Position numbers and translations under genes: made by a program. A stretch of DNA of 64,000 nucleotides from Chitinophagales bacterium (GTDB lineage: Bacteria; Bacteroidota; Bacteroidia; Chitinophagales; JADIYW01). Positions within the stretch are counted from its first letter, which is position 1. Every line of letters begins with the position of its first letter. The notes under the pieces are model-generated. The model made no database searches and was not told the DNA's origin. It saw nothing but the letters and a program-made list of their open reading frames with translations. This document shows positions 10,511 through 36,767 of the stretch, piece by piece. The stretch spans positions 5,288 to 69,287 of the forward strand of contig DATJBS010000011.1 in NCBI GenBank assembly GCA_035515235.1. Reading direction: 5' to 3'.

Positions 10511-10815
10511 TATTGATAAAGGTTGGCTATACATTATAAAATAATAACAGCTGTATTAATTCCTTTATTAAAATATCATTCAGCTGCTTGTAGTTCAGAT
10601 ATATGCGTTGTTTTCCAATCTCTTATTTATACAATAAGCTATTGAATCCAACTAGCAAATTCAAAGTTATGTTTTAGTAATGTAGTTTTTATTTAGCAAA
10701 GCTGCTTTGAAAATTTGTTGTAATTAATACAATTTCGTGGGAGGGTAGGGGATTTTAGGTAATAGATTTTGGTGTGTATTTATTGGAATAATGAGTGGGT
10801 TGGGAAGGTCTTAAA

Positions 10816-10904
10816 GATTAACTTCAATCGAAGAGGTAAGCTTGAACCTGTCGAAAGTTTCTTTCTAAGACGAAATGTAGACTATTGAAAATGTACTGTT
10901 AAAT
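10816..10904 (-). repeat. attC-like imperfect palindrome (last element of array 1)
   Basis: Minus-strand reading gives ATTTAAC (a perfect RYYYAAC with the ORF stop codon TAA inside it), then AGTACATTTTCAATAG ... CGATTGAA, then GTTAATC. The arm AACAGTACATTTTCAATAG resembles AACAGCACATTTGCAATAG of element 15618..15754. Confidence 0.6.
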
Positions 10905-11561
10905 GCTGTATTTATTCAATTCGTCTTCAATATCTTTCATTAAAAATATTAACTCTAAGAACATAATATGTTCATAGATATCAGTGCCATTTGATGAATA
11001 ACCAAATTTAAGTCCTTTCCAAGTTATGTTATCAATGCTTTTATTGTTAATTGTCACTTTGAAATTGTGTGCTAAGGCATTACGTATAATCCATCCAAAT
11101 TGAAATAAATCATTCCACTTCGTTTGGTCTTTTCCAAACTGTTTGATAATTTTTTCTTTTATTTTTTCCCAAAATTGAATATATGTAGCTTGACCGAGCG
11201 ATAAGAAAACTTTCACAAATCCATTTATTGACTCAATCATTTCTACTTGGTCATCAAATGATTTTTCCTTGTGATGGATTTTTATACTTTCAGGCCATTG
11301 ATTTTAAATTAAGTACTTATATATGTCGATTGGGAAAAAGTAGTAAATCTTGTTTGTGGCTTTTTGTCGTCCTTCGAAAAATAAGTAATGTCCATCTTTG
11401 TAAGGAGTAGCTTGAGTCATATATGAGTCAATAAGGAAATTAGTTGAACAAAGACCTGCTAAGAATGAAACTGCACCGTCAAAAAAAATGTAAGATTTGT
11501 CAATTTGAGTAAACTCAATTTTGTCTTCGGGATTTACATCGAATAATTCGTGAGTCGTCAT
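10899..11561 (-). pseudogene. HEPN-like (RNxxxH) protein split by one in-frame TAA; track ORFs 11304..11561 and 10899..11240
   Basis: Both ORFs are in the same frame (663 nt in total). The only stop between them is TAA at 11306-11304, and the 21 codons after it are open (NQWPESIKIHHKEKSFDDQVE, then MIESING...). The C-terminal part carries WIIRNALAHNF, an Rx4H motif. Confidence 0.5.
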
Positions 11562-11689
11562 TTTCTAGAATAAATTACATAGCAATTATAATATGATAAG
11601 ATGATGATTTTTAAACATTTCCTGTCAGCAAAGAAAATGATATAAAATACAAAGCTTTATTTTAATCAAGTAGTCACTAATTTCATTTA

Positions 11690-11760
11690 GGTGCTGTTAT
11701 ACTTTCGTGCTTTCTGTCATGAATATGATTTGGTAAATCTATGCAATCATATTGTTAATC
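11690..11760 (-). repeat. attC-family element, degenerate
   Basis: The ORF stop codon lies inside GATTAAC. This is followed by a 9-bp inverted repeat (AATATGATT...AATCATATT), the family core GAAAGCACGAAAG, and a second GTATAACAGCAC box. No clear GTT end was found. Confidence 0.35.
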
Positions 11761-12915
11761 CCACTTATAATAAATACAGTCAAGTAAAGCAACTCTATAA
11801 TTGTAAATTTTAAGTTCCGATTTTTGCATTGATTTATTTTGTTTACTCCAATCAGAATTAATGAATGGCTCAACAATTAAATCCCAATAAGTTTCATAGT
11901 TGACTTTACTTTTATTGATTTGCAACTCTTTGCACATTGCATTTTGATTCTTTCCATTGAAGTTAATAAAATAATCCGGTCTCCACAAACAAAGCATTCT
12001 TGATGCACAAGCAAGTTCTTTTTGCGATGATACTTTTTGAAACTCTTTAATAAAATTTAGATAATCGGATTTAGTCACTTCACCTTTCTTTGGAATTTTA
12101 CTTAGTGCGTTTGTAATTATTTCTGGCTTTTCAATCACTGAGTTTTTGAAATACCCTCTTGCATTAGTAGTTCCAAAGCAACCAATGTCAACACCATGTT
12201 CTTCCTTTTCACCACTTCCAAAACCTGCAATTGATTTACGAGTTTGCAAATTTATTTTATGAAATTGTTCTTGCTTACTAAACTCATTCTTTACCCAATC
12301 TAAAAAACGAATTGATCCTTTATAATCTTCTTGCTTTAATTCGGTTAAATATTCTTTCCATGTTTTTTCATATACAGGTTGTCTAATTCCTTTTAAAGGA
12401 AGTTTAGGAACATAAGTTTTTACTTTCTTTTTTCGCTTTGTGTATTCTTTGACATATTCTTTGGTCAAGATTTTTCCTTTACTCCATTGTTCGTCTATAA
12501 AGAGCACGATGCTTTTATAAAAATCACTTTCTGATTTGTCTGCCGAAGAAATTAAAACAGATGCCTCGGTATTATTTGTGAAAGCCGAAGAAGTATAATT
12601 TGCACTTCCAATTAATAACTCCCAATCAGTTGCACTATTGGTAAACAAATAAAGTTTAGGATGATAAGTTCCTTTTGTTTGGTCTATAAATCTAACTCCT
12701 TGATGATTGTAAAACTTCTCAAGAAAACCTAGATGTGTTCCGAAAAATTGTAAGCCGACACATATCTTTATAATTTTAGCTTTCTTAATCACCAACAAAT
12801 TACTCATCTCGAAATTAAAGTCAGCCCAAGCAACTGTCCATAGGTATTGATCGTAGTTTAACATTAGTCGCTTAAATTCTTTTGTTAATTCAGTTGTCGT
12901 ACCGATTAGTTTCAT
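11755..12915 (-). CDS. PLD-superfamily (single HKD motif) nuclease-like protein with uncharacterised C-terminal domain
   Basis: 386 aa. GTYHPKLYLF...LLIGSANYTSSAF matches the HxK...GSxN pattern of Nuc/BfiI-type PLD nucleases. The C-terminal ~230 aa were not recognised. Confidence 0.6.
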   Translation of the reverse strand: MKLIGTTTELTKEFKRLMLNYDQYLWTVAWADFNFEMSNLLVIKKAKIIKICVGLQFFGTHLGFLEKFYNHQGVRFIDQTKGTYHPKLYLFTNSATDWELLIGSANYTSSAFTNNTEASVLISSADKSESDFYKSIVLFIDEQWSKGKILTKEYVKEYTKRKKKVKTYVPKLPLKGIRQPVYEKTWKEYLTELKQEDYKGSIRFLDWVKNEFSKQEQFHKINLQTRKSIAGFGSGEKEEHGVDIGCFGTTNARGYFKNSVIEKPEIITNALSKIPKKGEVTKSDYLNFIKEFQKVSSQKELACASRMLCLWRPDYFINFNGKNQNAMCKELQINKSKVNYETYWDLIVEPFINSDWSKQNKSMQKSELKIYNYRVALLDCIYYKWD

Positions 12916-12962
12916 ATTATTTTTTTTATCTTAAATCTTAATTTATATCGTTAAATATGTCT

Positions 12963-13106
12963 TAATAACTAGACTGTTATCGACTGAGGCTATGGGCTAC
13001 CTGCTATTTGCAGGAGTATTCAATATCTCACAGCGACGAAGTGAATGCGGGCGCAGAGCCTGCAAAAATACTTCAGCTAGCAGTTGGACATAGGCACGTG
13101 TTAAGG
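12963..13106 (-). repeat. attC-family element, degenerate, in a 416-bp ORF-free gap
   Basis: Minus-strand reading gives CCTTAAC-ACGTG..., then TATTTTTGCAGGC, which pairs with CCTGCAAATA, then ...GTTATTA. It is locally GC-richer than its surroundings. A separate TTTGTCAAC box lies at 13230..13238. Confidence 0.4.
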
Positions 13107-13331
13107 GTTGTGTATGCAATAGAACTACAGGAGGGCATGAACATTGGACTAGGTTTGATTTGAAAAGACCAATTACTATATTGATCCAATTCCTGAATTT
13201 ATCATTAAAAATGCTTTGACTAATTTAGGGTTGACAAAAAGGGATTTTATTGATTGGATATAATTCAACTGTAAAATTACTAGTTAATTTTATTAATGAA
13301 TTGTCTCTACCCGAATTGATTCATTAGTAGT

Positions 13332-14003
13332 TTAAATTATTGATTTTATATTGATCTCTATAATTGTCATACGACCATCATCGTAAGTATTAATAATATT
13401 CTTTGATTGTGCTAAGAGACTTCCATGAATTATATTCTTTGGGTCTAGGTAAATTACATAACCATTGTCTACTTTCTCCATATGTTCTCTTTTTGTAATT
13501 CCAGCAAGTAAATAATTGTTTAATAAAAGGTCTTTATTTTTATTATTAATATCTCTATTATATTGGGTTAATATATTATTTCCATTGCCGTCTTGAATAC
13601 CTTGTATAACTTTTGTTTCAATATAGTTTACTATGAAATCTAATTCTCCGATAAATTGATTTAAAAAGAACCCTATAGTAGTTGTCTCTTTTAATGTATC
13701 ATAATATCGGATTCTATAAGCATCACCAAGAATTTTCAGAAACCGTTCGTCTATTTTTTTTGTGATGTCAAAGTAGCAATCAGATAGTAATTCTTGTATT
13801 TTATCCAATTTATCTAAATGAACTCCCATTTCCTTTTTCTCTTTTCCATGAAATGCTAAGATTGCTTTTAAATATTTTTCTACAGCAGTACTTGCAAGAG
13901 TCACGCCTTGTATGATGTATCCACCATGAATCAAATATCTAGCAGAAATGTAATCATTATAACCTAATGAGATTAATGAAACAGCTTTAGAGTTATTATC
14001 CAT
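13332..14003 (-). CDS. HEPN domain protein with extra C-terminal domain
   Basis: 223 aa. YNDYISARYL...ASTAVEKYLKAIL...GVHLDKL...AYRIRYYD follows the classical HEPN helix pattern (QAxEKxLKA, HxL, RYP-like). No MNT partner is adjacent. Confidence 0.65.
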   Translation of the reverse strand: MDNNSKAVSLISLGYNDYISARYLIHGGYIIQGVTLASTAVEKYLKAILAFHGKEKKEMGVHLDKLDKIQELLSDCYFDITKKIDERFLKILGDAYRIRYYDTLKETTTIGFFLNQFIGELDFIVNYIETKVIQGIQDGNGNNILTQYNRDINNKNKDLLLNNYLLAGITKREHMEKVDNGYVIYLDPKNIIHGSLLAQSKNIINTYDDGRMTIIEINIKSII

Positions 14004-14032
14004 ATTGTGAAAATTATAGAAGCATAAAAAAA

Positions 14033-14165
14033 CTTGTCAACGTTTTGGCACTTGGCATGAAGCGGATTTGAAATCACAAAACTGTCTGCCTACACTAACT
14101 TGATACGAAGCACAAAGCTTCATTTGACCACAGAACCGCCAATTTCTTGTAGGAGCTGTTATAGC
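14033..14165 (-). repeat. attC-like imperfect palindrome
   Basis: Minus-strand reading gives GCTATAAC 6 nt after the stop, then ...AAATTGGCGGTT ... AATCCGC..GCCAAAAC-GTTGACAAG. The arms are cttgtcaacgttttggcac.. (14033-) and ..aaccgccaatttcttgtaggagctgttatagc (-14165). Confidence 0.7.
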
Positions 14166-14171
14166 TTGTGT

Positions 14172-14945
14172 TTATTCTAGTTCATGCATTAAAAGGTCGT
14201 CAGGATATACTGGTGTCAATTCATAATCGTCGGAATCTTTATTTATGTACATTGCTTTTTTAGTAGCCATGCCCCAGTCTCCGAGAAACTTCTTTCTATA
14301 TCTAGCAAGGGTAAAGAAAACTGTAACATTTTCAGACCAGTCTTTAATAAAAGAAGAGTCCTTATATGTATTAATTCTCAAAGCAATATTTGCATCAACA
14401 TCTAACTCGCTACCAGTTTGTAAGCCTTTTACATCTCCTTCAATTACCAATGAAGCAGACTGTGAGTTTGATTGCATTATTAATGCTCGTTTAGCAACTG
14501 TCACAGATGTTACTATAAAGCAGTTTTTCCAGTCTATTGAGTTTTTGTGTGGTTCCAATTGTTGTTCTAAATTGGATGTGTCAACAATAGAATTGACTTT
14601 ACAATCAACAGCAGCAAAATATGTTGCTCCTTCTTTATTAAAATTTATTTCGAGTTTTCCTTTTCCTACGGTTGCTGCATTAGCGTCCGCAGTAAAGCTG
14701 ACTCCAACAGATCCTTTACTTGCATATAAATACGGATCTGGATCTGAGTCATCTTGTTCTTGAAAGGTAACTCCCAAGCTTGAAAGTTTAGAAATAGGGT
14801 CAAATGATCCAATAGGTCTAGGCTTGACAAAACCTTTTCCAAAAGTAATGACGTCACCTACACTAACTGGTGTTCCTGGTAGAAATACTGGGATTTTATC
14901 AAGCTCCTTGATAATCTCTTTGCAATAGTCTTTAACTAAACTCAT
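14172..14945 (-). CDS. gasdermin-like (candidate pore-forming) protein
   Basis: 257 aa, no signal peptide, beta-rich. It has an N-terminal helix followed by PVFLPGTPVSVGDV. The segments CFIVTSVTVAKRALIMQSNSQSASLVIEGDV and NVTVFFTLARYRKKF resemble gasdermin N-domain strands as I recall them. The C-terminal tail of ~35 aa is acidic. This is pattern recognition only. Confidence 0.4.
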   Translation of the reverse strand: MSLVKDYCKEIIKELDKIPVFLPGTPVSVGDVITFGKGFVKPRPIGSFDPISKLSSLGVTFQEQDDSDPDPYLYASKGSVGVSFTADANAATVGKGKLEINFNKEGATYFAAVDCKVNSIVDTSNLEQQLEPHKNSIDWKNCFIVTSVTVAKRALIMQSNSQSASLVIEGDVKGLQTGSELDVDANIALRINTYKDSSFIKDWSENVTVFFTLARYRKKFLGDWGMATKKAMYINKDSDDYELTPVYPDDLLMHELE

Positions 14946-14956
14946 GATTTTAAATT

Positions 14957-15616
14957 TTAATTGTTATTAATTGATTGATTATTTTCTATTTGATTTTCTT
15001 TCGCAATTTCTTCAATAATGTCACCAATCACATACGGTGGTTCGCGATATGCTATTTTAAGATTTGAATCGCTGTGAGGATGGTTCAAACCAATTCTGTG
15101 AGATATTTCATGTGCTATTGTATTTGAAATACTGGGTGGATTTCTATTTTTTAATGGCACTCTATTGAACAATATAGGTCCATACTCGGTACCATCATAA
15201 GCTATATTACCATAAATTAAGTTAAGCCATAGCCCTTTTACTCCACCATAAGTATCAGCAGAAGTTCCATTAATATTTTCTCGCATTTTTTGAACAACAT
15301 CTTTCGCAACAACCCCTTCCCAAGCTTTAGTATGTTCACCCGTTCCTAAACTGTCCTTTATGTAATTCGTCAATAATGTCTCAAATTTTTCAGAATAAAC
15401 TGATTTTATTGTCAGATTTACTGCAAGTTTGAAATCATCAATCTTTTTACAAGGCATTTTTGACTCAGCGAAAGTAATTTCCTTGCCATCTAATTTATAG
15501 GTGATTTTTGGAACTTCACATAATGAAGTACATGATGAAATTGTTATCAGTACTCCTATACCTGCAATTATCGTAATTTTTTTTTCCTTCATTTTCATTG
15601 TTGTCTTTTTTAACAT
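14957..15616 (-). CDS. zinc metallopeptidase (metzincin-type HExxHxxGxxH), predicted lipoprotein
   Basis: 219 aa. HEISHRIGLNHPH motif. The N-terminus KKITIIAGIGVLITISSC looks like a lipoprotein signal. An 11-nt gap separates it from the downstream ORF. Confidence 0.6.
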   Translation of the reverse strand: MLKKTTMKMKEKKITIIAGIGVLITISSCTSLCEVPKITYKLDGKEITFAESKMPCKKIDDFKLAVNLTIKSVYSEKFETLLTNYIKDSLGTGEHTKAWEGVVAKDVVQKMRENINGTSADTYGGVKGLWLNLIYGNIAYDGTEYGPILFNRVPLKNRNPPSISNTIAHEISHRIGLNHPHSDSNLKIAYREPPYVIGDIIEEIAKENQIENNQSINNN

Positions 15617-15617
15617 A

Positions 15618-15754
15618 GGCTATAACGTTTTGCAGATTTGCGATGGGCGGGCTTTTTACCACAAATGTTGATGCGGAGCACAAAACTTTCGGCTACCACT
15701 ACACTGTCTGCGGAGAACGAAACCCCGCCTATTGCAAATGTGCTGTTAGCAGTA
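15618..15754 (-). repeat. attC-like imperfect palindrome
   Basis: Arms are ggctataacgttttgcagatttgcgatgggcggg (15618-) and ccccgcctattgcaaatgtgctgttagcag (-15752). The inner stems ATTTGCRATRGGCGGG pair 14/16 with a bulge next to the boxes. The AAC box lies 7 nt after the stop, and the GTT box lies 1 nt before the next ATG. Confidence 0.75.
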
Positions 15755-15760
15755 GGCATT

Positions 15761-16750
15761 CTATTTCTTGTCATCAAAGTAATTCTGTTTCCCAATCTTT
15801 CCTTTGACATAGTCGAGGTAGTTGTCGTCATTCTGTTTGTCGTTGTCAACTCTTGTCATTCCAACATTTAAATTTATTTGCTCACTTTCAAGGTCGTAAA
15901 TTACTTTGCTGATTGCTTGTTGTTTTAGATAGTACTTATATGAAATTTCTTCAACTTCTGCTAATGTAATCTCGGAAATAATAAATCTATGAATTACTCT
16001 ATTTCTTTCATCATAGAGAACATATAGTTCGTCAAATGTTGATTGGTCTATAATTCCTAAATCGAGTGCTTTTTTGTAAATATCTTTTTCTGATTTTTTC
16101 TTATCAGTTAGTCCTTGATAAATCCATTCGACTTCAATTTCACTATTGTTATTTGTTATTTGGTTTTTCAGAACGATACCAATTCTTAAAAGTGCATCAA
16201 TTTGACTTGCTAAAAGACAAGTAGCTTCAATGAAGGCTTTGTTTTCTATTGCTTTACTGAGAATTAAAGCAGTCGCACCAACTCCTTGCAAAAACATATC
16301 AAATCTATATGAGTTTATCACGTCAATACTTTTCCCATCTTCTATCGGTTTAAATTCTTTCAATATTGAATGAACGGTTTCCACTTTCTCGGATATTGTT
16401 CGACTGTCAAGGTCTTTGTCCGGATTGTTGGGATGTGTTAAAGTAAAAATCACTGATTTATCCCCTAATTGCTTTAACCAAGTTTTGGTCGTGAATTCCA
16501 TATCGCCACTATCAGGTAACTTATAAAAATCAAAGTCTCCAATTTTTTCAACTGTTAATGATTTGGTTAAGTTTTGAAAGTTCTTTTTCTTTTCTTCGGT
16601 GTCCAATGAATTTATTGATAGTTGGAATGCATCTGATTTCCAAATTTCATATTCCTGAAAAGTATGTACTTTTCCATTCTTAATTGAATGTTTCCAAGTC
16701 GTCGGAACTTTAATTTCGAAAGTTCCTTTTTCGTCTATAAATCGTTTCAT
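15761..16750 (-). CDS. two-domain protein with C-terminal HEPN-like RNxxxH motif
   Basis: 329 aa. The C-terminal helical region contains YDERNRVIHRFI (Rx4H). The N-terminal ~150 aa were not recognised. Confidence 0.45.
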   Translation of the reverse strand: MKRFIDEKGTFEIKVPTTWKHSIKNGKVHTFQEYEIWKSDAFQLSINSLDTEEKKKNFQNLTKSLTVEKIGDFDFYKLPDSGDMEFTTKTWLKQLGDKSVIFTLTHPNNPDKDLDSRTISEKVETVHSILKEFKPIEDGKSIDVINSYRFDMFLQGVGATALILSKAIENKAFIEATCLLASQIDALLRIGIVLKNQITNNNSEIEVEWIYQGLTDKKKSEKDIYKKALDLGIIDQSTFDELYVLYDERNRVIHRFIISEITLAEVEEISYKYYLKQQAISKVIYDLESEQINLNVGMTRVDNDKQNDDNYLDYVKGKIGKQNYFDDKK

Positions 16751-16775
16751 TGTCTTTTGTGTCGGTTATTATGCT

Positions 16776-16925
16776 TACTGCTAACTTGTCTATACACGCT
16801 ACATCGTTGTACATATACAACCCACGTCAAACGGATTTGAGATACTTCATCTCGTATTATCTTTTAAAAATAGCTAATTATTTATTCACAAATTAGTGAA
16901 AATTATATTCTGAATATAGTTTATT
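16776..16925 (-). repeat. attC-family element (GTT-box arm clear, AAC box uncertain)
   Basis: Minus-strand reading gives ...TCAAATCCG..GGGTTGTATATGTACAACGATGTAGCGTGTATAGACAAGTTAGCAGTA. This arm is homologous to the arm at 21710..21756. A possible AATAAAC box lies at 16919..16925. Confidence 0.5.
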
Positions 16926-16961
16926 GGTTATTATTTAAAATCAAGTTTTAAATCTAGATGC

Positions 16962-17627
16962 TCAATTATTCTCCTTCTCAAATTCTTCAATTTCTTTGTA
17001 AAATTGAATGGCTTTTTCTACAGATTTTCCGCCTGAACCTGCTATTAAATTTCTAAACCATTTTTTGTTTAAGTTTTCAGGAGTATGGTTTTTGTACAGC
17101 CAAAAAGAAAGATAAGTAAAACTGCCTGTCATCAGAATCTGAAAGATGATGTACGGCCATCCTACATCTTGCGGAAACCAATTTTTGCTCAAATAGAAGG
17201 TGGTAAAAAATGGAAATTGTAAACACATCCATTTGCCGTGGTCAATGATGGAAAGTTGAAGTCTTGATAATTGTTTCTGAATGTCCATTACACTGCCATC
17301 GTAATTTATATTTTTTGTCCAAACAAGATGTTTAATATAATCCGCAAACCCTTTTATATTGATGAATGCGATAGCAGAAACCGATACAATAAAATAATTG
17401 CTTGCCGAAGAGTAATTTGAAATAGCAAAAAATAAGGCATAGCCCAATAGGAGTAGGTAAAATACAAAAGCTATAATTCCTGCAGTTTTTAATTGAACCA
17501 AACCTTTTAAAGCAGATGCTGCCTTTCTGCCAATCGTCTCTTTTAAAAGCAATTGATTAATGGCCAATGTCTTTTCTATTTTGGCATTTTGCTCTTTCCA
17601 AATATTGATAAGTTCTAAATTTTCCAT
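16962..17627 (-). CDS. multi-pass membrane protein downstream of ECF sigma (anti-sigma-like by position)
   Basis: The start is set at the internal ATG at 17627 (MENLELINIWKEQ), which leaves one nucleotide (17628) between it and the sigma stop codon. About four hydrophobic segments. No recognised anti-sigma motif. Confidence 0.4.
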   Translation of the reverse strand: MENLELINIWKEQNAKIEKTLAINQLLLKETIGRKAASALKGLVQLKTAGIIAFVFYLLLLGYALFFAISNYSSASNYFIVSVSAIAFINIKGFADYIKHLVWTKNINYDGSVMDIQKQLSRLQLSIIDHGKWMCLQFPFFTTFYLSKNWFPQDVGWPYIIFQILMTGSFTYLSFWLYKNHTPENLNKKWFRNLIAGSGGKSVEKAIQFYKEIEEFEKENN

Positions 17628-17628
17628 T

Positions 17629-18141
17629 TTAGTGAGTTTTGACTTGATTGAATTCCTTGGTGATTTTGGTTTTAATTCTACTGATTTTTGTGGCCACATT
17701 GGTTTCGGTAATTCCGATGATTTCTGAAATTTCTTTATAACTTTTTTCTTCGAGGTATAGCAACATGAGCGCTTTATTCAAATCATTTAATTCTGAAATG
17801 ATATGATTCAATATTCCCAAATGAGTTTCTTTTTCATCTGATATTTCTGTGTCGGAAAAGTCAAAAATATCTGTTGTAATTGGGTTGGAGATTCTTTTTC
17901 TACTGTTTTCTTTCCTATAAAACGATATCGCTACATTAAGAGCAATTCGGTATATCCAAGTGGAATGTTTAAACTGTTCGTTGTAGTGATCAAATGATTT
18001 CCACAGCTGTAAAATAATTTCTTGAACGAGGTCTTTTCTATCTTCAAGATTCCGACAATAGGAGTTGGCGACTTTAAATAGAATGCCTTTGTGATGCTCC
18101 ATCACAACGAGAAAGTCGGCTGTCCTATCTTTGTCCATCAT
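17629..18141 (-). CDS. RNA polymerase ECF-type sigma-70 factor
   Basis: 170 aa. Region 2 is DLVQEIILQLWKSFDHYNEQFKHSTWIYRIALNVAISFYRK. Region 4 HTH is KSYKEISEIIGITETNVATKISRIK. Confidence 0.85.
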   Translation of the reverse strand: MMDKDRTADFLVVMEHHKGILFKVANSYCRNLEDRKDLVQEIILQLWKSFDHYNEQFKHSTWIYRIALNVAISFYRKENSRKRISNPITTDIFDFSDTEISDEKETHLGILNHIISELNDLNKALMLLYLEEKSYKEISEIIGITETNVATKISRIKTKITKEFNQVKTH

Positions 18142-18383
18142 CTTGTTGGTACGTTTGAAAACCTGTTTTAATTAAGCTAAACTGTTTGATATTATTGGTG
18201 TTTTTATTTTCCATTTTAGTTTGATTTTAAGATGAAGTATTGCTCTTTTCTTAATTATTCGCACAAGGACTATAAAAATCACACTTTTTTGAATAAAATT
18301 TTTCAGTGAAATAATAGGAATAAGTATTGATAAACTTTAGAGAAGATGTAAGAGGTGATTGATGTAGATAAAGAATGGTATTT

Positions 18384-18493
18384 GCTTTGTCGTGTTTCGC
18401 ATAAAATGTTGCGGACTTTCCAAGTTCAGTTTTAATTGGAGAGGTTTTTTCAGTAAAAACTGACTAAGCTATAGCTTATATACAGTGTTAGGC
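18384..18493 (-). repeat. attC-family element (canonical AAC box, distal end uncertain)
   Basis: GCCTAAC (a perfect RYYYAAC) lies 9 nt after the stop at 18487..18493 (plus strand gttaggc). Further along comes AAAGTCCGCAACATTTTATGCGAAAC, but no clear GTT box. Confidence 0.45.
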
Positions 18494-18502
18494 TACGTTA
18501 TT

Positions 18503-19183
18503 TTACATAACAAATTTATATATTTCTTTTACGTATTTTTCTCTTTGGTACCAATCGTTATAAACAAGCTCAAATTCATGTACTTTAAAAGTTCCAAAAT
18601 TGTATTTGATATTTTCATCTAAAAATTCTAATAATTTCTCTTTTTGACTTAATTCCGTTCTAAATCGAACAATAGTTGAGTGTGCTGTTTGTATTGAATA
18701 TCTTTTGTCTAAACTTTGTTCCAGATTAGAGCTTTTAAATTCTTTTCTCAGCCTGTCTCTTATATCATTTAGTTCATTATTATCCATAAACCCTTGAATC
18801 ATAATTCCAGAAGGTGAGGCAGTAATTCCTCTAAAAGAGATGTTTAGATCTTTCTTTTCTACAATGCATTTTTCAATTAATTCAATATACTTTGCTAAAT
18901 CAATCCTTTTAATGTCAAATCCATCATAACAAGAAATGATAGACATTACAGTAATATGAATGTCAGAGTTTGGATAATAATATTGATTCGGTTCAATTTT
19001 CTCAATTTCTTTGATAAATATTTGAATTTTTTCTTTTATCTCAATTGAAGGTCTTATCAAAAGCGTTATTCCAAACCTATTGTCTTTGTTAGAATCTATT
19101 AAATCGTCAATTTCGTAATTGTTGGAAGAGATTTTATCTATGGATTCATTATAGAGTTTTTTATAGTGGTTTTCTAAATTCAT
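18503..19183 (-). CDS. 2H phosphoesterase superfamily protein (LigT / cyclic phosphodiesterase-like)
   Basis: 226 aa with two HxT/S motifs, DIHITVMS and TAHSTIVRF. Confidence 0.7.
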   Translation of the reverse strand: MNLENHYKKLYNESIDKISSNNYEIDDLIDSNKDNRFGITLLIRPSIEIKEKIQIFIKEIEKIEPNQYYYPNSDIHITVMSIISCYDGFDIKRIDLAKYIELIEKCIVEKKDLNISFRGITASPSGIMIQGFMDNNELNDIRDRLRKEFKSSNLEQSLDKRYSIQTAHSTIVRFRTELSQKEKLLEFLDENIKYNFGTFKVHEFELVYNDWYQREKYVKEIYKFVM

Positions 19184-19186
19184 TCA

Positions 19187-19489
19187 TCACAAATTTTCAA
19201 TATTATTACGGATGTTCTTCTCAAACTCTTCAATTTCATTGTAACCAATGGCAAAAAGCAACAAAACCAAAGAAATTATGGCTGGTAAAAACATTTTCAA
19301 AATGCTATCCTTACCACTTGAATGGTCATGTCCGTCTTCATCAGAATGATTATCTGCCTTTTTTTCTTTAAAAACAGGTTCATCAGTTGCACAACAACCC
19401 ACTTCTTTCTGTTCTTTTTTTAATTGTTTGTCAGCCTCAAAATTTATCTTTTCTTCTTGTGTACAACAAAGTTGTTGACCGTTTTTGTC
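19187..19489 (-). pseudogene. fragment resembling the N-terminus of a heavy-metal P-type ATPase (CC / His-Asp-rich region plus first TM), no ATG at frame start
   Basis: The open frame runs from 19489 and reads ...QLCCTQEEK...VGCCATDEP...HSDEDGHDHSSGKDSILKMFLPAIISLVLLLFAIG. The track ORF begins at GTG 19402. The frame ends after an EIEEFEK tail shared with ORF 16962..17627. Confidence 0.4.
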
Positions 19490-19662
19490 TTATATATGTT
19501 TATGCTCCATTTATTGCAGGGTGTTCTAGATGTAAGCTATCATTTTGCAGATACTCGAAGAACGGAACTTTCCCTATAAAAGTTAATGCGAAAACCAATG
19601 TTTGATTAATCGCAAAATTGTTAATTTCATTGTTTGTGTGCTTATTGGGTGTGGTGAGGCAG

Positions 19663-19860
19663 AGTTAACGGGCCACGTATTGGCGATAGTGGCGGATTAG
19701 AAAGTTTAAACTCTCAATCTTGCACTAAGAAAAGCAATAGCCTTTTATTATTTTCTAAATTTATAAAAAAAGAAAATATAAAAGACTGTTGCGACTAAAA
19801 AAGGAGAAACTTTCAATTTCTCCCTTAAACCGCCATTTTGTCAACACGGTGTTATGTGTA
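19663..19860 (-). repeat. attC-like imperfect palindrome (long central loop)
   Basis: Minus-strand reading gives TACACATAAC-ACCGTG..AAAATGGCGGTTT, a centre of ~120 nt, then CTAATCCGCCACTATCGCC..GGCCC-GTTAACT. TGGCGG pairs with CCGCCA. Confidence 0.65.
19796..19824 (-). terminator. Rho-independent terminator-like hairpin inside the loop of element 19663..19860
   Basis: Minus-strand reading gives GGAGAAA-TTGAAAG-TTTCTCC followed by TTTTTT. Confidence 0.45.
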
Positions 19861-19911
19861 GTTTTTTTGAGGGTATTTTCCTTTGTTTTCTTTTTATTTG
19901 AATATTATTTG

Positions 19912-19936
19912 TATATTTGCAAGGGAAATTTCCCTT
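19912..19936 (+). promoter_or_regulatory. Bacteroidota-type -7 box plus perfect 16-bp palindromic operator upstream of the HTH-ImmA gene
   Basis: TATATTTG (TAnnTTTG) lies at 19912..19919. It is directly followed by AAGGGAAATTTCCCTT at 19921..19936, 12 nt before the ATG at 19949. Confidence 0.55.
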
Positions 19937-19948
19937 AATTTTGATTAT

Positions 19949-21130
19949 ATGAATATTGAGAGTTTATTAAATTCCATATTTTCAGATACAAATTATAATA
20001 TTAAAAATGTTTTTGAACAGAAGCTTAACGAATACAATCTAAGTAGAACTAAGGCTTTAAAACTATTGAATATTGATAAAGATGTATTTGATGAAATTTT
20101 AAATGGAACAGCAAAACAACCAAATTTAATACATATTGTAAAGATTGCAGAGTTTTTAGGAATAGAAGTCAATAGCTTTATAAATATTGTATTAAAAAAT
20201 CAAAGTGCTGAGAATATTTCAGCAATTGATAGTGCTAGAAAAGCTACGTTTCTTGTTAAAAACTTTGATGTAAAAGCGCTTACAAAACTTGGCTTTTTTG
20301 ACGCAGATTATACGACTGAAGAACTTGTAAATAAGGTTTTAGATTATTTTGGTTATACTTCAATTAATGATTTTGAAGAACAATTAGAAGAACCTTTGTA
20401 TAGTAGGGTTAAAAAGAATCATTCAGATAAAATGAAAGATTTTTGGATAAAATCCGCTTATCAAACTTTTAAGGTTATTAATAATCCGAATGATTATAAT
20501 CGAGAAAGATTAAAAGACTTAATTGTGAAAATTAAGCCTTATAGTCAAGATGTCGGTAATGGTTTGTTGACTGTCTGTAGAGCATTATATAATATTGGAG
20601 TTACTGTAATCTTTCAAAATTATTTGACAACTACTCAAGTTCGAGGTGCGACCTTTATAATAAACGACAAACCATGTATTGTAATTACTGATTTCAATAA
20701 AGTTTATCCAACACTTTGGTTTACATTATTGCATGAACTTAATCACGTTTTGTTTGATTATGATACAATTGAAAAAAGTAGTTACCACTTGTCAGATGAT
20801 AATGACTTATTCTTGATTGAAGATCAAGCAAATTCATTTGCTAGAAATTTCTTTCTATCTGAAGAAAAGTTCAAGTACATTAAGAAATACATTAATAATC
20901 CCTATTTAGTGTCAAAGTTTGCAAATGAGATTGAAGTTCATCCTTCAATTGTTTATTCTTTTTTTACATGGTATCAGAAAGAATTATACAATAAGAATTA
21001 TCATGCTGCTTTCAGAGAATATTATCCGGATTACAGTAATGCAATTTCCAAATTAAATCCAATAACTTGGAATGAAGCAAGCATTAAGGAAGCAAGTGAA
21101 AAAATTAAATCAGTTTTAGAATTAAATTAA
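19949..21130 (+). CDS. HTH (XRE-type) + ImmA/IrrE-family metallopeptidase fusion
   Basis: N-terminal HTH (LSRTKALKLLNIDKDVFDEILNG...IVKIAEFLGIEVNSFI) and the HExxH motif LLHELNHVLFD. The start is set at the internal ATG at 19949 (MNIESLL). Confidence 0.75.
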   Translation: MNIESLLNSIFSDTNYNIKNVFEQKLNEYNLSRTKALKLLNIDKDVFDEILNGTAKQPNLIHIVKIAEFLGIEVNSFINIVLKNQSAENISAIDSARKATFLVKNFDVKALTKLGFFDADYTTEELVNKVLDYFGYTSINDFEEQLEEPLYSRVKKNHSDKMKDFWIKSAYQTFKVINNPNDYNRERLKDLIVKIKPYSQDVGNGLLTVCRALYNIGVTVIFQNYLTTTQVRGATFIINDKPCIVITDFNKVYPTLWFTLLHELNHVLFDYDTIEKSSYHLSDDNDLFLIEDQANSFARNFFLSEEKFKYIKKYINNPYLVSKFANEIEVHPSIVYSFFTWYQKELYNKNYHAAFREYYPDYSNAISKLNPITWNEASIKEASEKIKSVLELN

Positions 21131-21136
21131 GATATT

Positions 21137-21673
21137 ATGTCAAATAAAGAAATAAAAAAACAAGAAGGGCTTTCTCAAGCCGATATAGAAAGATTAGAAC
21201 TTTTACAAAAAGCTAATGAAAAAATAGGAAAGCAATTGACTATAAATTCTGAATCTGGAAATCTTGAAGAATTTGATGAATTAAGACAATTAGTTGGGAA
21301 AGAATTTGAAAATCCTGAAGAAAAATACAACTTGTATTATGTGGGAATAAGAAGATTACTAATGGGTTATTTACCAAAAGGCAAGGATAATAAGCAATTA
21401 AGAGAAATTATTTATGATGAAAAAAATGTTTTTTTGAATTTAGGTAAGAAGAAATCGGATAATAACGGGATACGTAAATCTGATGGAAGAATGACTTATC
21501 AACCAGTAATGAATGAAATATTAGATATAATCATCAAGTGGGTAGGAGAGTCTCAAAATCCTTTCGATTTATATAGAGATTTCTATGAGTTGAATGAAAA
21601 ACATGGATACGGTCATGAGGTTTATGATGATAGTACACAAAGTGTAGCGAAAGCAATGTTAGCTTTAAGCTGA
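21137..21673 (+). CDS. hypothetical protein, co-oriented partner of the HTH-ImmA gene
   Basis: 178-aa ORF 6 nt downstream of the preceding stop. No motif recognised. Confidence 0.5.
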   Translation: MSNKEIKKQEGLSQADIERLELLQKANEKIGKQLTINSESGNLEEFDELRQLVGKEFENPEEKYNLYYVGIRRLLMGYLPKGKDNKQLREIIYDEKNVFLNLGKKKSDNNGIRKSDGRMTYQPVMNEILDIIIKWVGESQNPFDLYRDFYELNEKHGYGHEVYDDSTQSVAKAMLALS

Positions 21674-21707
21674 AGCTAGAATTTTACTACGATGCTTTTA
21701 GAAAAAT

Positions 21708-21756
21708 TACACATAACTTGTTTATATGCGCTACAAATTAGCGCAAATACAACCAT
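21708..21756 (-). repeat. GTT-box arm of an attC-family element (upper boundary of array 1)
   Basis: Minus-strand reading gives GGTTGTATTTGCGCTAATTTGTAGCGCATATAAACAAGTTATGTGTA. It is homologous to the arm of 16776..16925 and contains the GCGCTA/TAGCGC hairpin. Confidence 0.55.
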
Positions 21757-21928
21757 AGATAGATGGATATGTGATATTTTATAGCTTAATATATTTTAAA
21801 AATAAACAATATATCTTATTAATCTTAGAGGGAGATTTTATAATTCTGAATCTAATCTCTTCATTCAATTCTATGATGGATATTTAAAAAGTTTTGATAT
21901 GAGATAAATTCATTATTTTTAGAATACC

Positions 21929-24729: not shown

Positions 24730-25233
24730 TTATTCGAATAATGTTTTTATAGTATTCATTGGTAGAAACATTTTTCCGCTATCTGGTAATTTAATAAAAC
24801 CATATTTATGATAAAATCTTTCTGCAAGTTCATCAATAGGGTCAACTACAACTGCAAACGAACCTATACTTTTTGAAATCTCATAGCTTCTCCTTAAAGC
24901 ATCAATCAATAATAGTTTTCCTACTCCTTGTTTTTGAAATCGATTATCTATTGCCAAACGTCCGAGTAGAGTAGAAGGTATAGATTTATAAGAATTAGGT
25001 AGTTTTTTTTGAAATTCTTCTGGGATTAATTCTTGTGCTAAACTGTTATTCGCTAAAGTATAATAGCCTTTTAGTAAATCTGTTTCTTTGTCAATTAGCA
25101 CAAAGCAGGCAGATAGTTTTCTTTTGATGTCTTGATTGGCTTGTTTGTGCAAATAATCATCCAACATTTCATTCCCACACGAAAATTCTTTTTTTCTATG
25201 ATTAGAATTTAAGATTTCTGTCAGTTCGTTCAT
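24730..25233 (-). CDS. GNAT-family acetyltransferase toxin (TacT/KacT-like)
   Basis: 167 aa. RLAIDNRFQKQGVGKLLL acetyl-CoA motif. A 4-nt overlap links it to the upstream DUF1778 gene. Confidence 0.8.
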   Translation of the reverse strand: MNELTEILNSNHRKKEFSCGNEMLDDYLHKQANQDIKRKLSACFVLIDKETDLLKGYYTLANNSLAQELIPEEFQKKLPNSYKSIPSTLLGRLAIDNRFQKQGVGKLLLIDALRRSYEISKSIGSFAVVVDPIDELAERFYHKYGFIKLPDSGKMFLPMNTIKTLFE

Positions 25234-25520
25234 TTAGATAAAAGAGCTTTGTATTCATTTGCAGCGTTAGTAAGATTTTTATTTGCTTTCGGTGAATTAG
25301 TAATTGCATCAAAAAATATATCACTATCTCTTTTTGAAGCAATAGTCTGCTCATTTTCCGATATAATTTCTTTAGCTTTTTCTTGAACAGCCATAACAAC
25401 AAAATCTGTTAAACTTCTGTAACCACCAACTCGAGCAGCACGTTCAAAATATATTTTTTGTTCTTTTGATAAACGTGTATCAAATCTAGCTTTTTCTTGT
25501 TTTAATTCTTTTGTAGCCAT
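25230..25520 (-). CDS. DUF1778 (TacA-like) antitoxin
   Basis: 96 aa. FDTRLSKEQKIYFERAARVGGYRSLTDFVV is a typical RHH DUF1778 pattern. Confidence 0.8.
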   Translation of the reverse strand: MATKELKQEKARFDTRLSKEQKIYFERAARVGGYRSLTDFVVMAVQEKAKEIISENEQTIASKRDSDIFFDAITNSPKANKNLTNAANEYKALLSK

Positions 25521-25522
25521 AA

Positions 25523-25595
25523 TTGTAAATTTACAACAATTAAATGTACGCTTTTATTACGTACAATTCAATATTGTGTACGGTAATTTTCCGTA
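25523..25595 (-). promoter_or_regulatory. candidate operator region of the TA pair (three palindromes)
   Basis: TTGTAAATTTACAA is a perfect 14-bp palindrome at 25523..25536, abutting the ATG. GTACG-n9-CGTAC lies at 25546..25564 and TACGG-n7-CCGTA at 25579..25595. Confidence 0.45.
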
Positions 25596-25652
25596 TATAA
25601 TGTTTTTTATGTATTGTGGCTCACATTTTATAGCTACAATAAGAGCGAAATT

Positions 25653-25763
25653 TTATAACAAAACTGGACTTGAATAACCAATGTTTGATTAATCAAAAAG
25701 CTGACTCTGGAACACGAAACCACAACTATTACCCATATAATATTAGTAGTACTGTTTTAATAC
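25653..25763 (-). repeat. attC-family element
   Basis: Minus-strand reading gives GTATTAAAAC-AGTAC (the ORF stop codon TAA lies inside the box), then GGTTTCGTGTTCC (family core), GATTAATCAAACATTGGTT and GTTTTGTTATAA. Its start resembles that of element 10816..10904. Confidence 0.5.
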
Positions 25764-26224
25764 AACGAATTAAGTTTTGCAATAATTTTTACAATTTTTT
25801 CTACTTTCTGATTTTCAGTAGCGGATGAATTTATGCTTTGAATTATTTCATTCTGCTCTTCAATTTTGAGTTTCTTGAATATATTTAATACTTCAGCATC
25901 TTTGAAGCATTCAATAATTATTTCATTCTCATTCTTTTTTGTATTTCTATTTTCAAGATAGAGTGTAACTGTAACGATGTCGCCACCTTTTTTATTGATT
26001 GCTTTTCGAATCTCACTATTTACCGAAAGCATTTTATCTTCGCCTTTTATAGGAGCAAGGTTTCTTGCTTTAATTTTAAAATCATCAATGGAACCTGAAA
26101 CTTTAATATCACCCCATTTCCCTTCAATATCTTTTGAATTTGGAATACGTAAATGGTATGTCCAAGCTCCTTTTCCTGGTTGGTGCTTTAATTCAAGCTT
26201 TTCGTCTTTTATAATATATTCCAT
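25757..26224 (-). CDS. YdeI/OmpD-associated family protein (DUF1905-containing)
   Basis: 155 aa. GKGAWTYHLRIP...IKVSGSIDDF...SVNSEIRKAINKKGGDIVTVTL. Confidence 0.6.
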   Translation of the reverse strand: MEYIIKDEKLELKHQPGKGAWTYHLRIPNSKDIEGKWGDIKVSGSIDDFKIKARNLAPIKGEDKMLSVNSEIRKAINKKGGDIVTVTLYLENRNTKKNENEIIIECFKDAEVLNIFKKLKIEEQNEIIQSINSSATENQKVEKIVKIIAKLNSLY

Positions 26225-26558
26225 TTTTTATAAGATAGTCTTTTAGCCTTGCCGCTAGATCTTTTAAACCCACTACAAATTATTTCATATTCAACCATAA
26301 AAGGATGTATATAAGATATTTCTTAGAGCGAAATCTTTTAAATGTACTTATTAAATTTCAATCTATTATTTCAAAAAAATCATGCTGTTTTGAAGAAGTT
26401 AATCATGAGTTCTAATAGATGTTTTTGTTCCATTCGAAATTTCATTTTCTACATTTTATTCCTATTTAAACCTGTAGTTTGAATTGGTTTATTTCAAGGC
26501 TCAATGAAACTTGATTGTACATTGTTCGTATATTTTAATACACTAAAGACTAAACGAG

Positions 26559-33693: not shown

Positions 33694-33837
33694 TTTCTTA
33701 TTTTTTAAATGTAGTTCCTACTCTTATGAATTTTCAGAATACTCTCTGTTTTTAAAGTTGTTTTCTTGTCTCAACTTTTTGTCTGTCACTTAAAAAGAGG
33801 CAGCCTGCTTTGAATCGCTATGTAATTCTAATTTGAA

Positions 33838-33971: not shown

Positions 33972-33977
33972 CGTTTT

Positions 33978-34469: not shown

Positions 34470-34479
34470 TTTTTAAATT

Positions 34480-34617: not shown

Positions 34618-34627
34618 TGGCGTTCTA

Positions 34628-36644: not shown

Positions 36645-36767
36645 CTTTCTGTTCGTTTTTGATTAATTCCCTGCAAAGGTAGTCTTTATTTTGCAATTGC
36701 AAGCAAAATAAAAGTTGTTTTTGATTGTTTTCGTTTGAAAATCTTGTTTATACCGCTTTTTTACGTT

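Follow-up and report, generated by a model that had tools for sequence, protein, structure and literature searches.

Sedentary chromosomal integrons and CALINs, such as the superintegron of Vibrio cholerae, whose attC sites are the VCRs, are the described systems that come closest to the locus presented here. They consist of arrays of mostly promoterless, co-oriented small ORFs, and each cassette closes with an imperfect hairpin whose ...AAC box adjoins the ORF and whose GTT... box is the distal one. Recombination takes place at the GTT box, and a cassette therefore begins with bases complementary to the AAC box that it carries itself. Within a lineage the hairpin sites are homogeneous, integrase-less degraded arrays exist, and toxin-antitoxin and anti-phage cargo as well as opposite-strand group II introns (here seen in the related locus L107) are further points of likeness. 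We consider it very probable that the window, the whole 64 kb of DNA analysed, holds recombinase-less and partly decayed cassette arrays of an integron-like system that is common in Bacteroidota. An integron-like mechanism is supported, and the system is apparently an undescribed variant; in the literature searched we found no description of it.

Several features set the system apart from chromosomal integrons. Its sites close with a helix of 10 bp (4 conserved, 6 variable) compared to 7 in chromosomal integrons, and next to the closing helix come a 1x5-nt internal loop and a helix of ~20 bp in which an A.C mismatch is fixed. Features of classical attC sites are instead a spacer, a short L helix and extrahelical bases. 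The sites vary very little in length (~138 nt). Many organisms share the conserved attI-like site, which often occurs without the recombinase gene and in several copies per genome, and the recombinase gene and the cassettes have the same orientation. REP/BIME elements and MITEs are likewise short imperfect intergenic palindromes that are repeated in a genome. However, the window-type sites are not dispersed, are fixed in strand, occur only in arrays downstream of one site and carry register-shifted boxes.

Two tandem arrays with attI-like heads

The region between 10.8 and 21.7 kb, described in the original prediction as one array, is two tandem gene-cassette arrays that are headed by attI-like sites at 21.7 and 16.8 kb (Table 1). 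Both junctions had been counted among the hairpin elements; they turned out to be a separate, non-hairpin type of site, copies of a conserved ~100-nt attI-like sequence. These copies, Z and C, part company immediately after GTTA, and a 41-nt pattern occurs in the window only in the two of them (0 expected by chance). A 19-base pattern from the site retrieved 97 metagenome contigs, which have ~80 more conserved bases in common and diverge directly after GTTA; the conserved end reads ...TATA[TA]ACAAG|TTA. The nhmmer search for attI-like sites used an HMM from 69 external sites. Four attI-like heads are present in the window (36.8, 26.3, 21.7 and 16.8 kb), the first two of them belonging to two further arrays of this type, and such sites are also found mid-array, as site C here and in the related locus L019.

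The small ORFs had been placed on the minus strand with one exception. This holds for all eleven ORFs at 10.9-19.4 kb, and the exception consists of two plus-strand ORFs (415 and 178 aa, 19883-21673) that form one unit. A stretch with an ECF sigma factor and a putative anti-sigma partner (16962..18141, minus strand), in which cassette boundaries are not recognisable, lies between the two sub-arrays, and the lower third of the region (13.2-10.8 kb) is decayed. The cargo of all window arrays is typical of chromosomal integrons and includes AbiL, a TacA/GNAT pair, a HEPN protein, a PLD nuclease and a PD-Lambda-2_B-like protein.

Table 1. Features of the cassette arrays in the window (E values of hairpin sites from covariance model R1).
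Feature	Position	Strand	Remarks
Recombinase C-terminal remnant, 14 codons	36884..36925	-	...KSIQQIRSLFDDL then stop
attI-like site, strongly decayed	36774..36880	-	GTTA 36777-36774; HMM not significant; called from the ...ATATAAATAAGTTACCGGC junction and from its place directly behind the remnant of the recombinase
AbiL anti-phage pair cassette	34609..36777	-	GTTACCGGC / GCCGGTAAC, 9/9; AbiLi 35310-36644 (PADLOC E 8e-103), AbiLii/RloB 34628-35335 (E 6e-32)
attC-like site, best of the window	34479..34618	-	65.9 bits, E 3.4e-13
RDD-family cassette	33835..34488	-	ORF 33978-34469 (Pfam RDD); boxes 3/6
attC-like site of RDD cassette	33835-33972	-	31.5 bits, E 3.7e-05
attI-like site, degenerate, head of 26.3-kb array	26250..26351	-	nhmmer E 0.0059; GTTA changed to TCTA at 26259-26256
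Units of 26.3-kb array	24730..26224	-	DUF1905 ORF 25757-26224 (Pfam)
attC relic Y	25592-25737	-	83% identity over 64 nt to L025 attC; 10.1 bits, E 3.8
TacA antitoxin/GNAT toxin pair	24730-25520	-	Pfam
attI-like site Z, head of sub-array 1	21714..21811	-	nhmmer E 4.8e-16; crossover GTTA 21717-21714
Cassette 1 (1867 nt)	19851..21717	-	GTTATGTGTA (21708-21717) opens, TACACATAAC (19851-19860) closes; 10/10
Inverted ORFs of cassette 1	19883-21130, 21137-21673	+	M78/IrrE-like peptidase, PD-Lambda-2_B-like (Pfam, PADLOC)
attC-like site A, atypically long (~200 nt)	19660..19860	-	R'' TACACATAAC, R' GTTAACTCTG
Second-unit ORFs	18503..19402	-	71 aa; 226 aa, AKAP7/2H-phosphoesterase-like
ECF sigma factor	17629-18141	-	Pfam Sigma70_r2/r4
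Putative anti-sigma partner	16962-17699	-	from position; no Pfam family
attI-like site C, head of sub-array 2	16782..16881	-	nhmmer E 4.8e-12; crossover GTTA 16785-16782
Cassette, 1041 nt	15745..16785	-	GTTAGCAGTA (16776-16785) / TACTGCTAAC (15745-15754), 10/10; ORF 15761-16750 (329 aa), no family
attC-like site D	15617..15754	-	56.4 bits, E 5.6e-11, full length
Cassette, 1469 nt	14158..15626	-	GTTATAGC / GCTATAAC: 8 contiguous, 5/6 variable positions; 15617-15626/14158-14167, 9/10 overall; ORFs 14957-15616 (219 aa), 14172-14945 (257 aa)
attC-like site E	14032..14167	-	38.7 bits, E 7.7e-07
Cassette-like unit, HEPN-domain ORF 13332-14003	13230..14041	-	4/6 variable positions; 14032-14041/13230-13239 (E to F), 8 contiguous, weakest of the pairs; closing box TTGTCAAC (13230-13237) doubtful
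Decayed lower part	10808..13229	-	ORFs: PLD nuclease 11755-12915; 11304-11561; 10899-11240
attC relic G	11606-11702	-	5' arm shares 92% identity with family attC sites over 24 nt; loop E 0.83, weak
Relic H, ATTTAAC...GTTAATCTTT	10813-10904	-	no significant family match

Hairpin sites and register-shifted boxes

The covariance model R1 was built from external sites, without any window sequence. Its four significant matches in the window (E values from 3e-13 to 4e-05) share the cassette strand, and two of them, D and E, are among the ~8 elements proposed for 10.8-21.7 kb. The idea that all elements belong to one family stands for D and E only, and B (18.4 kb), F and H (10.8 kb) gave no significant match. 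External hairpin sites are ~138 nt long, lie between cassettes in chains of up to 12 and obey the register-shift rule. A 10-nt box ending in TAAC and one A are followed by the ~20-bp helix with its conserved A.C mismatch, a variable loop of ~80 nt, a 5-nt bulge on the 3' arm and finally a 10-nt box starting with GTTA. In the alignment of these sites 88.8% of the cells are base paired, compared to 31-37% with slid partners, compensatory changes are found in 15 of 22 base pairs, and the covariation score is 0.50 versus 0.155 in shuffles, a value reached by none of 500. The conserved fold that had been looked for is present, and the elements are matched by a covariance model of the family. By analogy with integrons the sites may act as folded single strands, and it is their architecture that suggests a relation to classical attC sites.

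Site D folds into a long hairpin. Site E retains an intact 5' arm that has lost its pairing with the 3' arm, and over its first 65 nt it shares 94% identity with attC sites of the metagenome locus L084. The boxes and GGCGG/CCGCC arms of site A were read directly, and the arms are like those of a family site in L042; its loop is ~60 nt longer than in the family, which is why R1 does not reach it. Region F (13103-13301) has 89% identity to positions 3658-3866 of L111, a relative, overlapping an opposite-strand ORF there. The arm AACGTTTTG, thought to be common to the elements, is exact in D and E and nowhere else, and the proposed core GAAGCACRAA is not enriched (15 matches window-wide, 9.4 expected). 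Logan contigs break inside A and D, and breaks are found inside genes too.

The four GTT/AAC box pairs originally reported were all exact on re-reading (Table 1). Inverted GTT...AAC 8-mers alone do not exceed chance (96 per strand in the window versus ~298 for both strands together in shuffles), and box positions must therefore be fixed independently. They were set by the covariance model and the HMM, both derived from external loci only. Of the 6 variable positions, 5, 3, 6, 6, 5 and 4 agree between window boxes of the same cassette placed in this way, while the 42 other pairings reach a mean of 1.5/6 and a maximum of 3, so that true cassette pairs (3-6/6) are by far the more complementary ones, as anticipated. 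In the array of Flavobacterium sp. TSSA_36 the agreement is 5-6/6 in 12/12 cassettes, compared to only ~2/6 for same-element or other pairings. The box rule also holds for the first cassette in 45 of 66 related loci, with a chain spacing of 118-122 nt, and the window is alike. Stop codons lie within the AAC box at 10899, 11755 and 25757, as could be seen in the sequence; GATTAAC at 11755 had been taken for the box of G, and the real box is GTATAAC at 11696-11702. Junctions near 18.4, 12.9 and 11.7 kb had been called degenerate. This fits element B, the end of the second unit (GCCTAAC 18487-18493), where the box rule is broken (2/6). Mutations have hit junctions B, F, G, H and Y as well as the attI-like sites of the 26.3- and 36.8-kb arrays, and the arrays are thus in part probably fossil.

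Recombinase, attI-like site and hairpin sites have a fixed order and strand in related loci, where 69 of 70 R1 matches are on the strand of the attI-like site and 67 of 70 are downstream of it. When the window was examined for scatter outside cassettes, all R1 matches with E <= 1e-4 fell on cassette junctions and had the strand of the cassettes. Variation is seen in a 94%-identical relative, whose gene content differs from 8-28 nt past the last GTT box onwards; synteny starts at window positions 10788-10808 and the genes differ beyond the end of the array. In a 78% GH172 relative no such sites are found near the GH172 gene. Structure, boxes, distribution and variation, the four points on which refutation had been made to depend beforehand, all came out in favour of the cassette reading.

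The linked recombinase and competing explanations

In line with the lack of an integrase noted beforehand, a tyrosine recombinase gene was not found in the 64 kb. The window has lost this gene, and the remnant at the head of the 36.8-kb array is identical at 12 of 14 positions in tblastn with metagenome recombinases. A full-length gene for a ~347-aa tyrosine recombinase is present in 10 of the 53 metagenome loci whose upstream DNA is long enough and in the genomes of two Flavobacterium isolates; in these it ends 88-107 nt upstream of the attI-like crossover, on the cassette strand. C-terminal remnants are found in 6 metagenome loci, and orphan attI-headed arrays are the majority of related contigs (37/53). 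The constant position of the recombinase gene suggests that the linked family is the acting enzyme.

Like IntI1 and VchIntIA, the linked recombinase combines a Phage_int_SAM_4 with a Phage_integrase domain. Its identity to IntI1 is 27% (alignment over residues 8-330), and it scores 205-231 bits on the 'integron integrase' model TIGR02249 (cut-off 265), the best NCBIfam match for the L106 recombinase, with the match in two pieces. It differs from IntI in that the additional domain is absent, with a 43-residue gap opposite IntI1 ~209-256, and in ~75 extra N-terminal residues without a family match. The match to the VchIntIA structure (PDB 2A3V) is also split into two stretches. As cited in PMC4889954, the additional domain was reported to be necessary for IntI activity (Messier & Roy 2001). 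The catalytic domain has Xer-like length, the best sequence matches among solved structures are archaeal XerA (139 bits) and a XerC-like protein (132 bits), and the NF040815 score is 217 bits versus a cut-off of 220. However, Xer enzymes such as XerC/XerD act on a single dif site to resolve chromosome dimers, whereas the linked family is located next to an attI-like site with its cassette arrays and possesses the extra N-terminal domain. The working of the system is integron-like, but with the IntI-specific domain lacking an assignment to classical integrons is not established.

In its complete form, observed in related loci, the system comprises a recombinase gene reading towards the attI-like site, followed by a same-strand cassette array. 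Recombination between two hairpin sites would excise a cassette as a circle, and the circle could integrate into the attI-like site or a further hairpin site. With the crossover within or beside the conserved AAC|GTTA, a linear cassette would start with GTTA-N6 and end with a complementary N6-TAAC, the halves of its own closing helix. The window arrays were or still are presumably served in trans by a recombinase copy elsewhere in the genome.

A possible, though clearly less likely, explanation is that the system built the arrays and that they are now inert, with a functional recombinase nowhere in the genome. All four array heads are without the gene, one of them with the 14-codon stump, and mutations are found in two attI-like sites and five or more hairpins. 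Yet decay has largely spared D and the 34.5-kb site, and three box pairs match without a single error (10/10, 10/10, 9/9). Orphan attI-headed arrays in 37/53 related contigs also speak against this view, since such a majority suggests that orphan arrays remain functional as satellites of a single recombinase copy.

It is rather unlikely that the window holds an ordinary CALIN with standard attC sites and a canonical IntI encoded elsewhere, in which case the Xer-like recombinase neighbouring the site in related loci would be incidental. CALINs are common (PMC9024848), and AAC/GTT boxes, hairpin, register shift and cassette polarity match classical integrons. However, the domain-less family is the only tyrosine recombinase beside the site in 12 related loci, at constant position and strand, and its remnant is kept at the head of one window array. 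In ~0.47 Mb of array-bearing loci tblastn with IntI1 gave no homologue besides this family, and integrons are reported to be nearly absent from Bacteroidetes.

Homologous recombination between conserved repeats, without a site-specific step, is a highly improbable origin of the modular arrays. It would agree with the conserved stretches within loops and with the chimeric look of E, whose 5' and 3' arms are of different types, but exchange inside a repeat does not lead one to expect a junction fixed at dinucleotide scale, complementary in-register 10-nt boxes in 12/12 cassettes, or unrelated attI-like and hairpin sites joined at GTTA. Dispersed REP/MITE-like palindromes or terminators with no part in cassette movement, as imperfect palindromes directly 3' of stop codons and contig breaks inside A and D might suggest, are the least credible alternative and already contradicted, because the copies have structure in common far more than sequence (blastn among window elements is almost empty), significant matches are strictly strand-specific and confined to arrays, contig breaks occur within genes too, and the register-shifted boxes and the attI-like junction would be left without explanation.

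Two kinds of sites in the arrays

At 21717 and 16785 the stretch that precedes the GTT box is no hairpin; the two stretches resemble each other along about 100 nt, up to GTTA, and differ from there on. The original prediction had assigned all junctions to one element family and has to be corrected here, as the junctions at 21.7 and 16.8 kb represent another, non-hairpin kind of site. A 19-base pattern from these two junctions, TGTAGCGNNTATANACAAGTTA, was used as search query against metagenome contigs and matched 97 of them. Aligned at this pattern, the contigs have about 80 further conserved bases in common. Conserved features of the site are two CGCTAC-nnn-GTAGCG palindromes with an ACCCAAA/TTTGGGT hairpin between them, and then TATA[TA]ACAAG^TTA, past which every contig differs. 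A profile of these attI-like sites (attI HMM, 69 external sites) recovers the heads at 21.7 and 16.8 kb as well as a decayed copy at 26.3 kb (see the table), and does not reach the decayed site of the fourth head at 36.8 kb.

Of the contigs, 53 extend 1250 nt or more upstream of the site. Ten of these carry a tyrosine recombinase of 344-374 aa on the same strand, ending 88-107 nt before the G, six carry a C-terminal remnant alone and 37 carry nothing. Two isolates have gene and site arranged likewise, namely Flavobacterium daejeonense (JRLG01000023.1, 232615-253658) and Flavobacterium sp. TSSA_36 (JBPTTP010000002.1, 217326-238366). Because the recombinase adjoins the site in these ten contigs and in both isolates, the attI-like site probably plays the part of an attI. 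The conserved site stands in that position, beside a recombinase and with the first cassette joining it, in 12 related loci, and gene-less four times in the window. C-terminal stumps beside attI-like sites measure 20-250 residues in six loci. At one external locus (L019) two hairpin sites immediately precede the attI-like site, which hence lies inside an array, like site C of the window.

Features located in the window and how they were recognised (R1, covariance model of hairpin sites of about 138 nt; both R1 and the attI HMM were built from external loci only)
Feature	Position	Strand	Evidence or context
RibD_C gene	9980-10534		flank of the array region
Hairpin site, element E	14032-14167	minus	R1 full-length match, 38.7 bits
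Hairpin site, element D	15617-15754	minus	R1 full-length match, 56.4 bits
attI-like site C	16782-16881		attI HMM, E 4.8e-12
attI-like site Z	21714-21811		attI HMM, E 4.8e-16
GH172/DUF2961 gene with type IX secretion tail	21929-24607		flank of the array region
Decayed attI-like copy	26268-26351		attI HMM, E 0.006
DUF805 RNA motif (Rfam)	33711-33780	minus	scores 55.5 bits, over the gathering cut-off; lies some 55 nt past the final hairpin of the 36.8-kb array
Hairpin site	33835-33972	minus	R1 full-length match, 31.5 bits
Hairpin site	34479-34618	minus	R1 full-length match, 65.9 bits
Complete AbiL anti-phage pair within one cassette	34609-36777		AbiLi E 8e-103, AbiLii E 6e-32
Fourth head, 36.8 kb: 14-codon recombinase remnant	36884-36925		(...KSIQQIRSLFDDL), then a badly decayed attI-like copy and GTTACCGGC

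The second kind of site is a hairpin. Thirty inter-cassette sites were picked by length and by the box rule, according to which the GTT box that opens a cassette is the reverse complement of the AAC box that closes it; three obvious non-members were then removed. The common architecture is N6-TAAC, an A, a helix of about 20 bp, a variable loop of about 80 nt, the return strand, a 5-nt bulge and GTTA-N6. Pairing holds in 88.8% of the cells; shifting the partners by 1-3 columns lowers this to 31-37%. Of 22 pairs, 15 carry compensatory changes on both sides. The TAAC/GTTA helix is invariant, and the covariation score of 0.50 (0.155 in shuffles) was reached by none of 500 shuffles. In 467 kb of related loci R1 gave 70 matches; 69 share their strand with the attI-like site, and 67 are located downstream of that site.

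In the window R1 finds four full-length sites, every one on the minus strand. At D, E and the 34.5- and 33.9-kb sites the polarity proposed earlier, with R'' (...AAC) next to the ORF and R' (GTT...) at the far end, is borne out by imperfect hairpins. In element A the boxes are present and the arms are family-like, and its loop is about 60 nt longer, due to which R1 does not find it; G and Y, the latter in the 26.3-kb array, are relics recognisable by blastn against family sites. Other parts of the original prediction did not hold: the arm AACGTTTTG, thought to be shared across the family, is common to D and E only, the supposed core motif is not enriched, the box of G was misplaced, and membership of B, F and H is not demonstrable. 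Among the window's own elements blastn detected almost no common sequence, and an ungapped inverted-repeat search missed the bulged hairpins. A REP/MITE family, which would be conserved in sequence and dispersed over unrelated intergenic positions on either strand, does not match copies that are little alike by blastn, fixed in strand and confined to arrays.

The long helix contains an invariant A opposite a nearly invariant C (columns 25 and 121 of alignment A3), which is kept in D and in the 34.5-kb site. This A.C mismatch is on the cassette strand, while the other strand would have G.T, and it could mark which strand is used. An exact 19-mer, GATTAATCAAACATTGGTT, occurs at 19593-19611 and 25677-25695, in the spacer after element A and in relic Y, and the loop of a family site in an external locus (L084) includes a resembling stretch, AATCAAACATCGGTT.

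Complementarity of the cassette boxes

All four box pairs reported earlier are exact at their coordinates. Inverted 8-mers of the form GTT...AAC are frequent throughout the window (96 per strand), and shuffles give even higher numbers. Since such 8-mers are at or below chance, an argument from the boxes requires that they are placed independently of their complementarity, and we placed them with models built solely from other organisms. Six same-cassette pairs in the window then show 5, 3, 6, 6, 5 and 4 matches at the six variable positions, compared to a mean of 1.5 and a maximum of 3 in the 42 other pairings. Boxes of the same cassette are thus complementary beyond other pairings, as had been claimed. 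In classical integrons, too, a crossover at G^TT of R' leaves the start of a cassette complementary to its own R''; here the crossover can be narrowed down to the conserved AAC-GTTA, though not to a single phosphodiester. Folding energy, used to rank every AAC...GTT segment, did not separate the true sites from coding sequence.

In the external loci the first cassette obeys the rule in 45 of 66 cases. Downstream of the attI-like site, chains of up to 6-7 cassettes obey it in metagenome contigs, and a chain of 12 does so in Flavobacterium sp. TSSA_36. From a closing box to the next opening box the gap is 118-122 nt in related loci; it is 119 nt for D and 117 nt for E. The base after the 10-nt opening box is an A in 82 of 82 distinct external cassette starts (L010-L106), giving GTTA-N6-A, and TA is found at +15/+16 in about 80% of distinct external starts. 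The corresponding position past the opening box in the window is 21707, 16775 and 36767. The functional site may extend past the opening box.

Cargo, flanks and relatives of the window arrays

The window has a G+C content of about 32%. The eleven ORFs from 10.9 to 19.4 kb are all read from the minus strand, and the single exception noted before is a two-gene plus-strand unit at 19883-21673. The genes of the region are typical accessory cargo or lack a family. Among them are genes for a PLD nuclease, a HEPN protein, a 2H-phosphoesterase-like protein, an M78 peptidase-like protein and an ECF sigma factor, whose putative anti-sigma partner was assigned from its position alone. A unit at 24.7-25.5 kb encodes a TacA antitoxin and a GNAT toxin. 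Homologues of the window cassette proteins were not found among the roughly 100 fetched loci. The DUF805 RNA motif was the sole match in an Rfam scan of the window; Rfam holds no attC family.

A tblastn search with IntI1 and eleven related recombinases found no tyrosine recombinase gene in the 64 kb, confirming that an integrase is missing from the window. About 100 nt upstream of the crossover, where the family recombinase would be located, only the 14-codon remnant is left. With four gene-less heads and several mutated sites, the window arrays are orphan and probably in part fossil.

A relative, a Logan contig (L111) with a 96% identical transketolase, is collinear with window positions 1-10788 at 94% identity and diverges beyond. 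The heptamer CCTTCCC at 10802-10808 is shared with it, which places the break 8-28 nt beyond the GTTAATCTTT box of element H (10813-10822), so that the predicted start of the array coincides with the loss of collinearity. From there on the relative carries different genes, together with a single decayed hairpin site. About 200 nt of the window (13103-13301, the 'F' spacer) are 89% identical to positions 3658-3866 of this contig, which there overlap a 76-aa ORF on the other strand; a small cassette in inverted orientation has probably left this stretch behind. Near a 78% identical GH172 gene in other metagenomes neither site type occurs, which indicates that the arrays beside GH172 are specific to the window's lineage. 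Against genome contigs the GH172 query returned only 61% identical Chitinophagales MAGs without synteny, and a look-up of the last window ORF, aimed beyond the window, gave no match. Exact-protein look-ups of window genes returned only short Logan contigs of the same sample, which break in the elements and inside genes and are therefore uninformative about the repeats.

The recombinase and its relation to integrons

An integrase with a special extra domain serves both to define integrons and to search for them. The recombinase of the related loci belongs to a very large family (E <= 1e-40 for all but 8 of 8000 scored candidates) with generic annotations, such as XerD, site-specific integrase and once 'tyrosine recombinase/integron integrase'. 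It consists of Phage_int_SAM_4 and Phage_integrase domains, preceded by about 75 N-terminal residues that match no family. The integron integrase model TIGR02249 reaches 205-231 bits in two pieces (NCBIfam cut-off 265) and the NCBIfam XerA model 217 bits (cut-off 220). Aligned with IntI1 over residues 8-330, the protein shows 27% identity and a gap of 43 residues opposite IntI1 ~209-256, and the match to VchIntIA (2A3V) likewise falls into two separate stretches. Judged from the alignment, what is missing at this gap is the additional domain by which integron integrases are defined. According to the account in PMC4889954, which cites Messier and Roy (2001), the additional domain is necessary for IntI activity.

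As far as sequence can tell, the footprints agree with a site-specific cassette system working like an integron, and so does the fixed anatomy. Such a system would consist of a recombinase, then the attI-like site, then co-oriented cassettes with hairpin sites. In the window, R1 hairpins follow an attI-HMM head on one strand, as in the system modelled from related loci. The attC-type hairpin with its boxes, known from classical integrons, is represented by the invariant TAAC/GTTA helix, the pairing and the compensatory changes. However, in classical integrons an integrase with the IntI-specific additional domain adjoins the array, whereas the recombinase of the related loci lacks that domain. 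For this reason we do not class it with the classical integrons. A CALIN, with at least two close attC sites and no integrase nearby, describes the window arrays when sites are called by R1 rather than by the operational IntegronFinder model (D and E are 1.4 kb apart, the 34.5- and 33.9-kb sites 0.5 kb). A broader reading, to which we give somewhat less than an even chance, is that Bacteroidota possess an integron class of their own, with an IntI/Xer-like recombinase without the additional domain, hairpins of about 138 nt and attI-like pads served in trans. A recombinase with an extra N-terminal domain would move cassettes via these hairpins and a phylum-wide attI-like site, and genomes would keep several recombinase-less 'landing pads' served by one copy.

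Integrons have been described as rare or absent in Bacteroidetes; earlier reports were of In0 elements only, and with IntegronFinder 2.0 one complete integron was then reported, in Salinibacter ruber (PMC9024848); a 2024 preprint counts Bacteroidota among clades 'previously found without any integrons'. We found no account of this recombinase-site family in the full-text literature searched, the coverage of which is incomplete, and a prior description is possible. If the reading of an own integron class is true, hairpin-site cassette recombination would be independent of a domain thought essential for integron integrases, would have arisen twice or predate that domain, and integrons, reported as scarce in Bacteroidota, would only seem so owing to the way they are detected. 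A functional system would give a major phylum, which includes the cultivable genus Flavobacterium, a large mobile gene-cassette pool that standard tools may miss or mislabel; anti-phage and toxin-antitoxin genes are among the cargo of the window cassettes. As a natural experiment, such a system would further show how folded hairpins can be handled by a simple Xer-like recombinase without the IntI-specific domain. Orphan attI-like sites scattered in the chromosome would then be a form of cassette-array organisation, and we know of no such arrangement described for classical integrons. The window alone carries a smaller message, that of partly decayed arrays in one Chitinophagales MAG, and the weight is on the phylum-wide system.

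The Flavobacterium daejeonense locus (L107, JRLG01000023.1) has two group II intron reverse-transcriptase genes (14422-16170 and 20101-21044) inside its array, on the opposite strand. The Rfam model group-II-D1D4-3 matches at 15820-16012, adjoining a hairpin site at 16167-16299. These introns recall the group IIC-attC introns of classical integrons.
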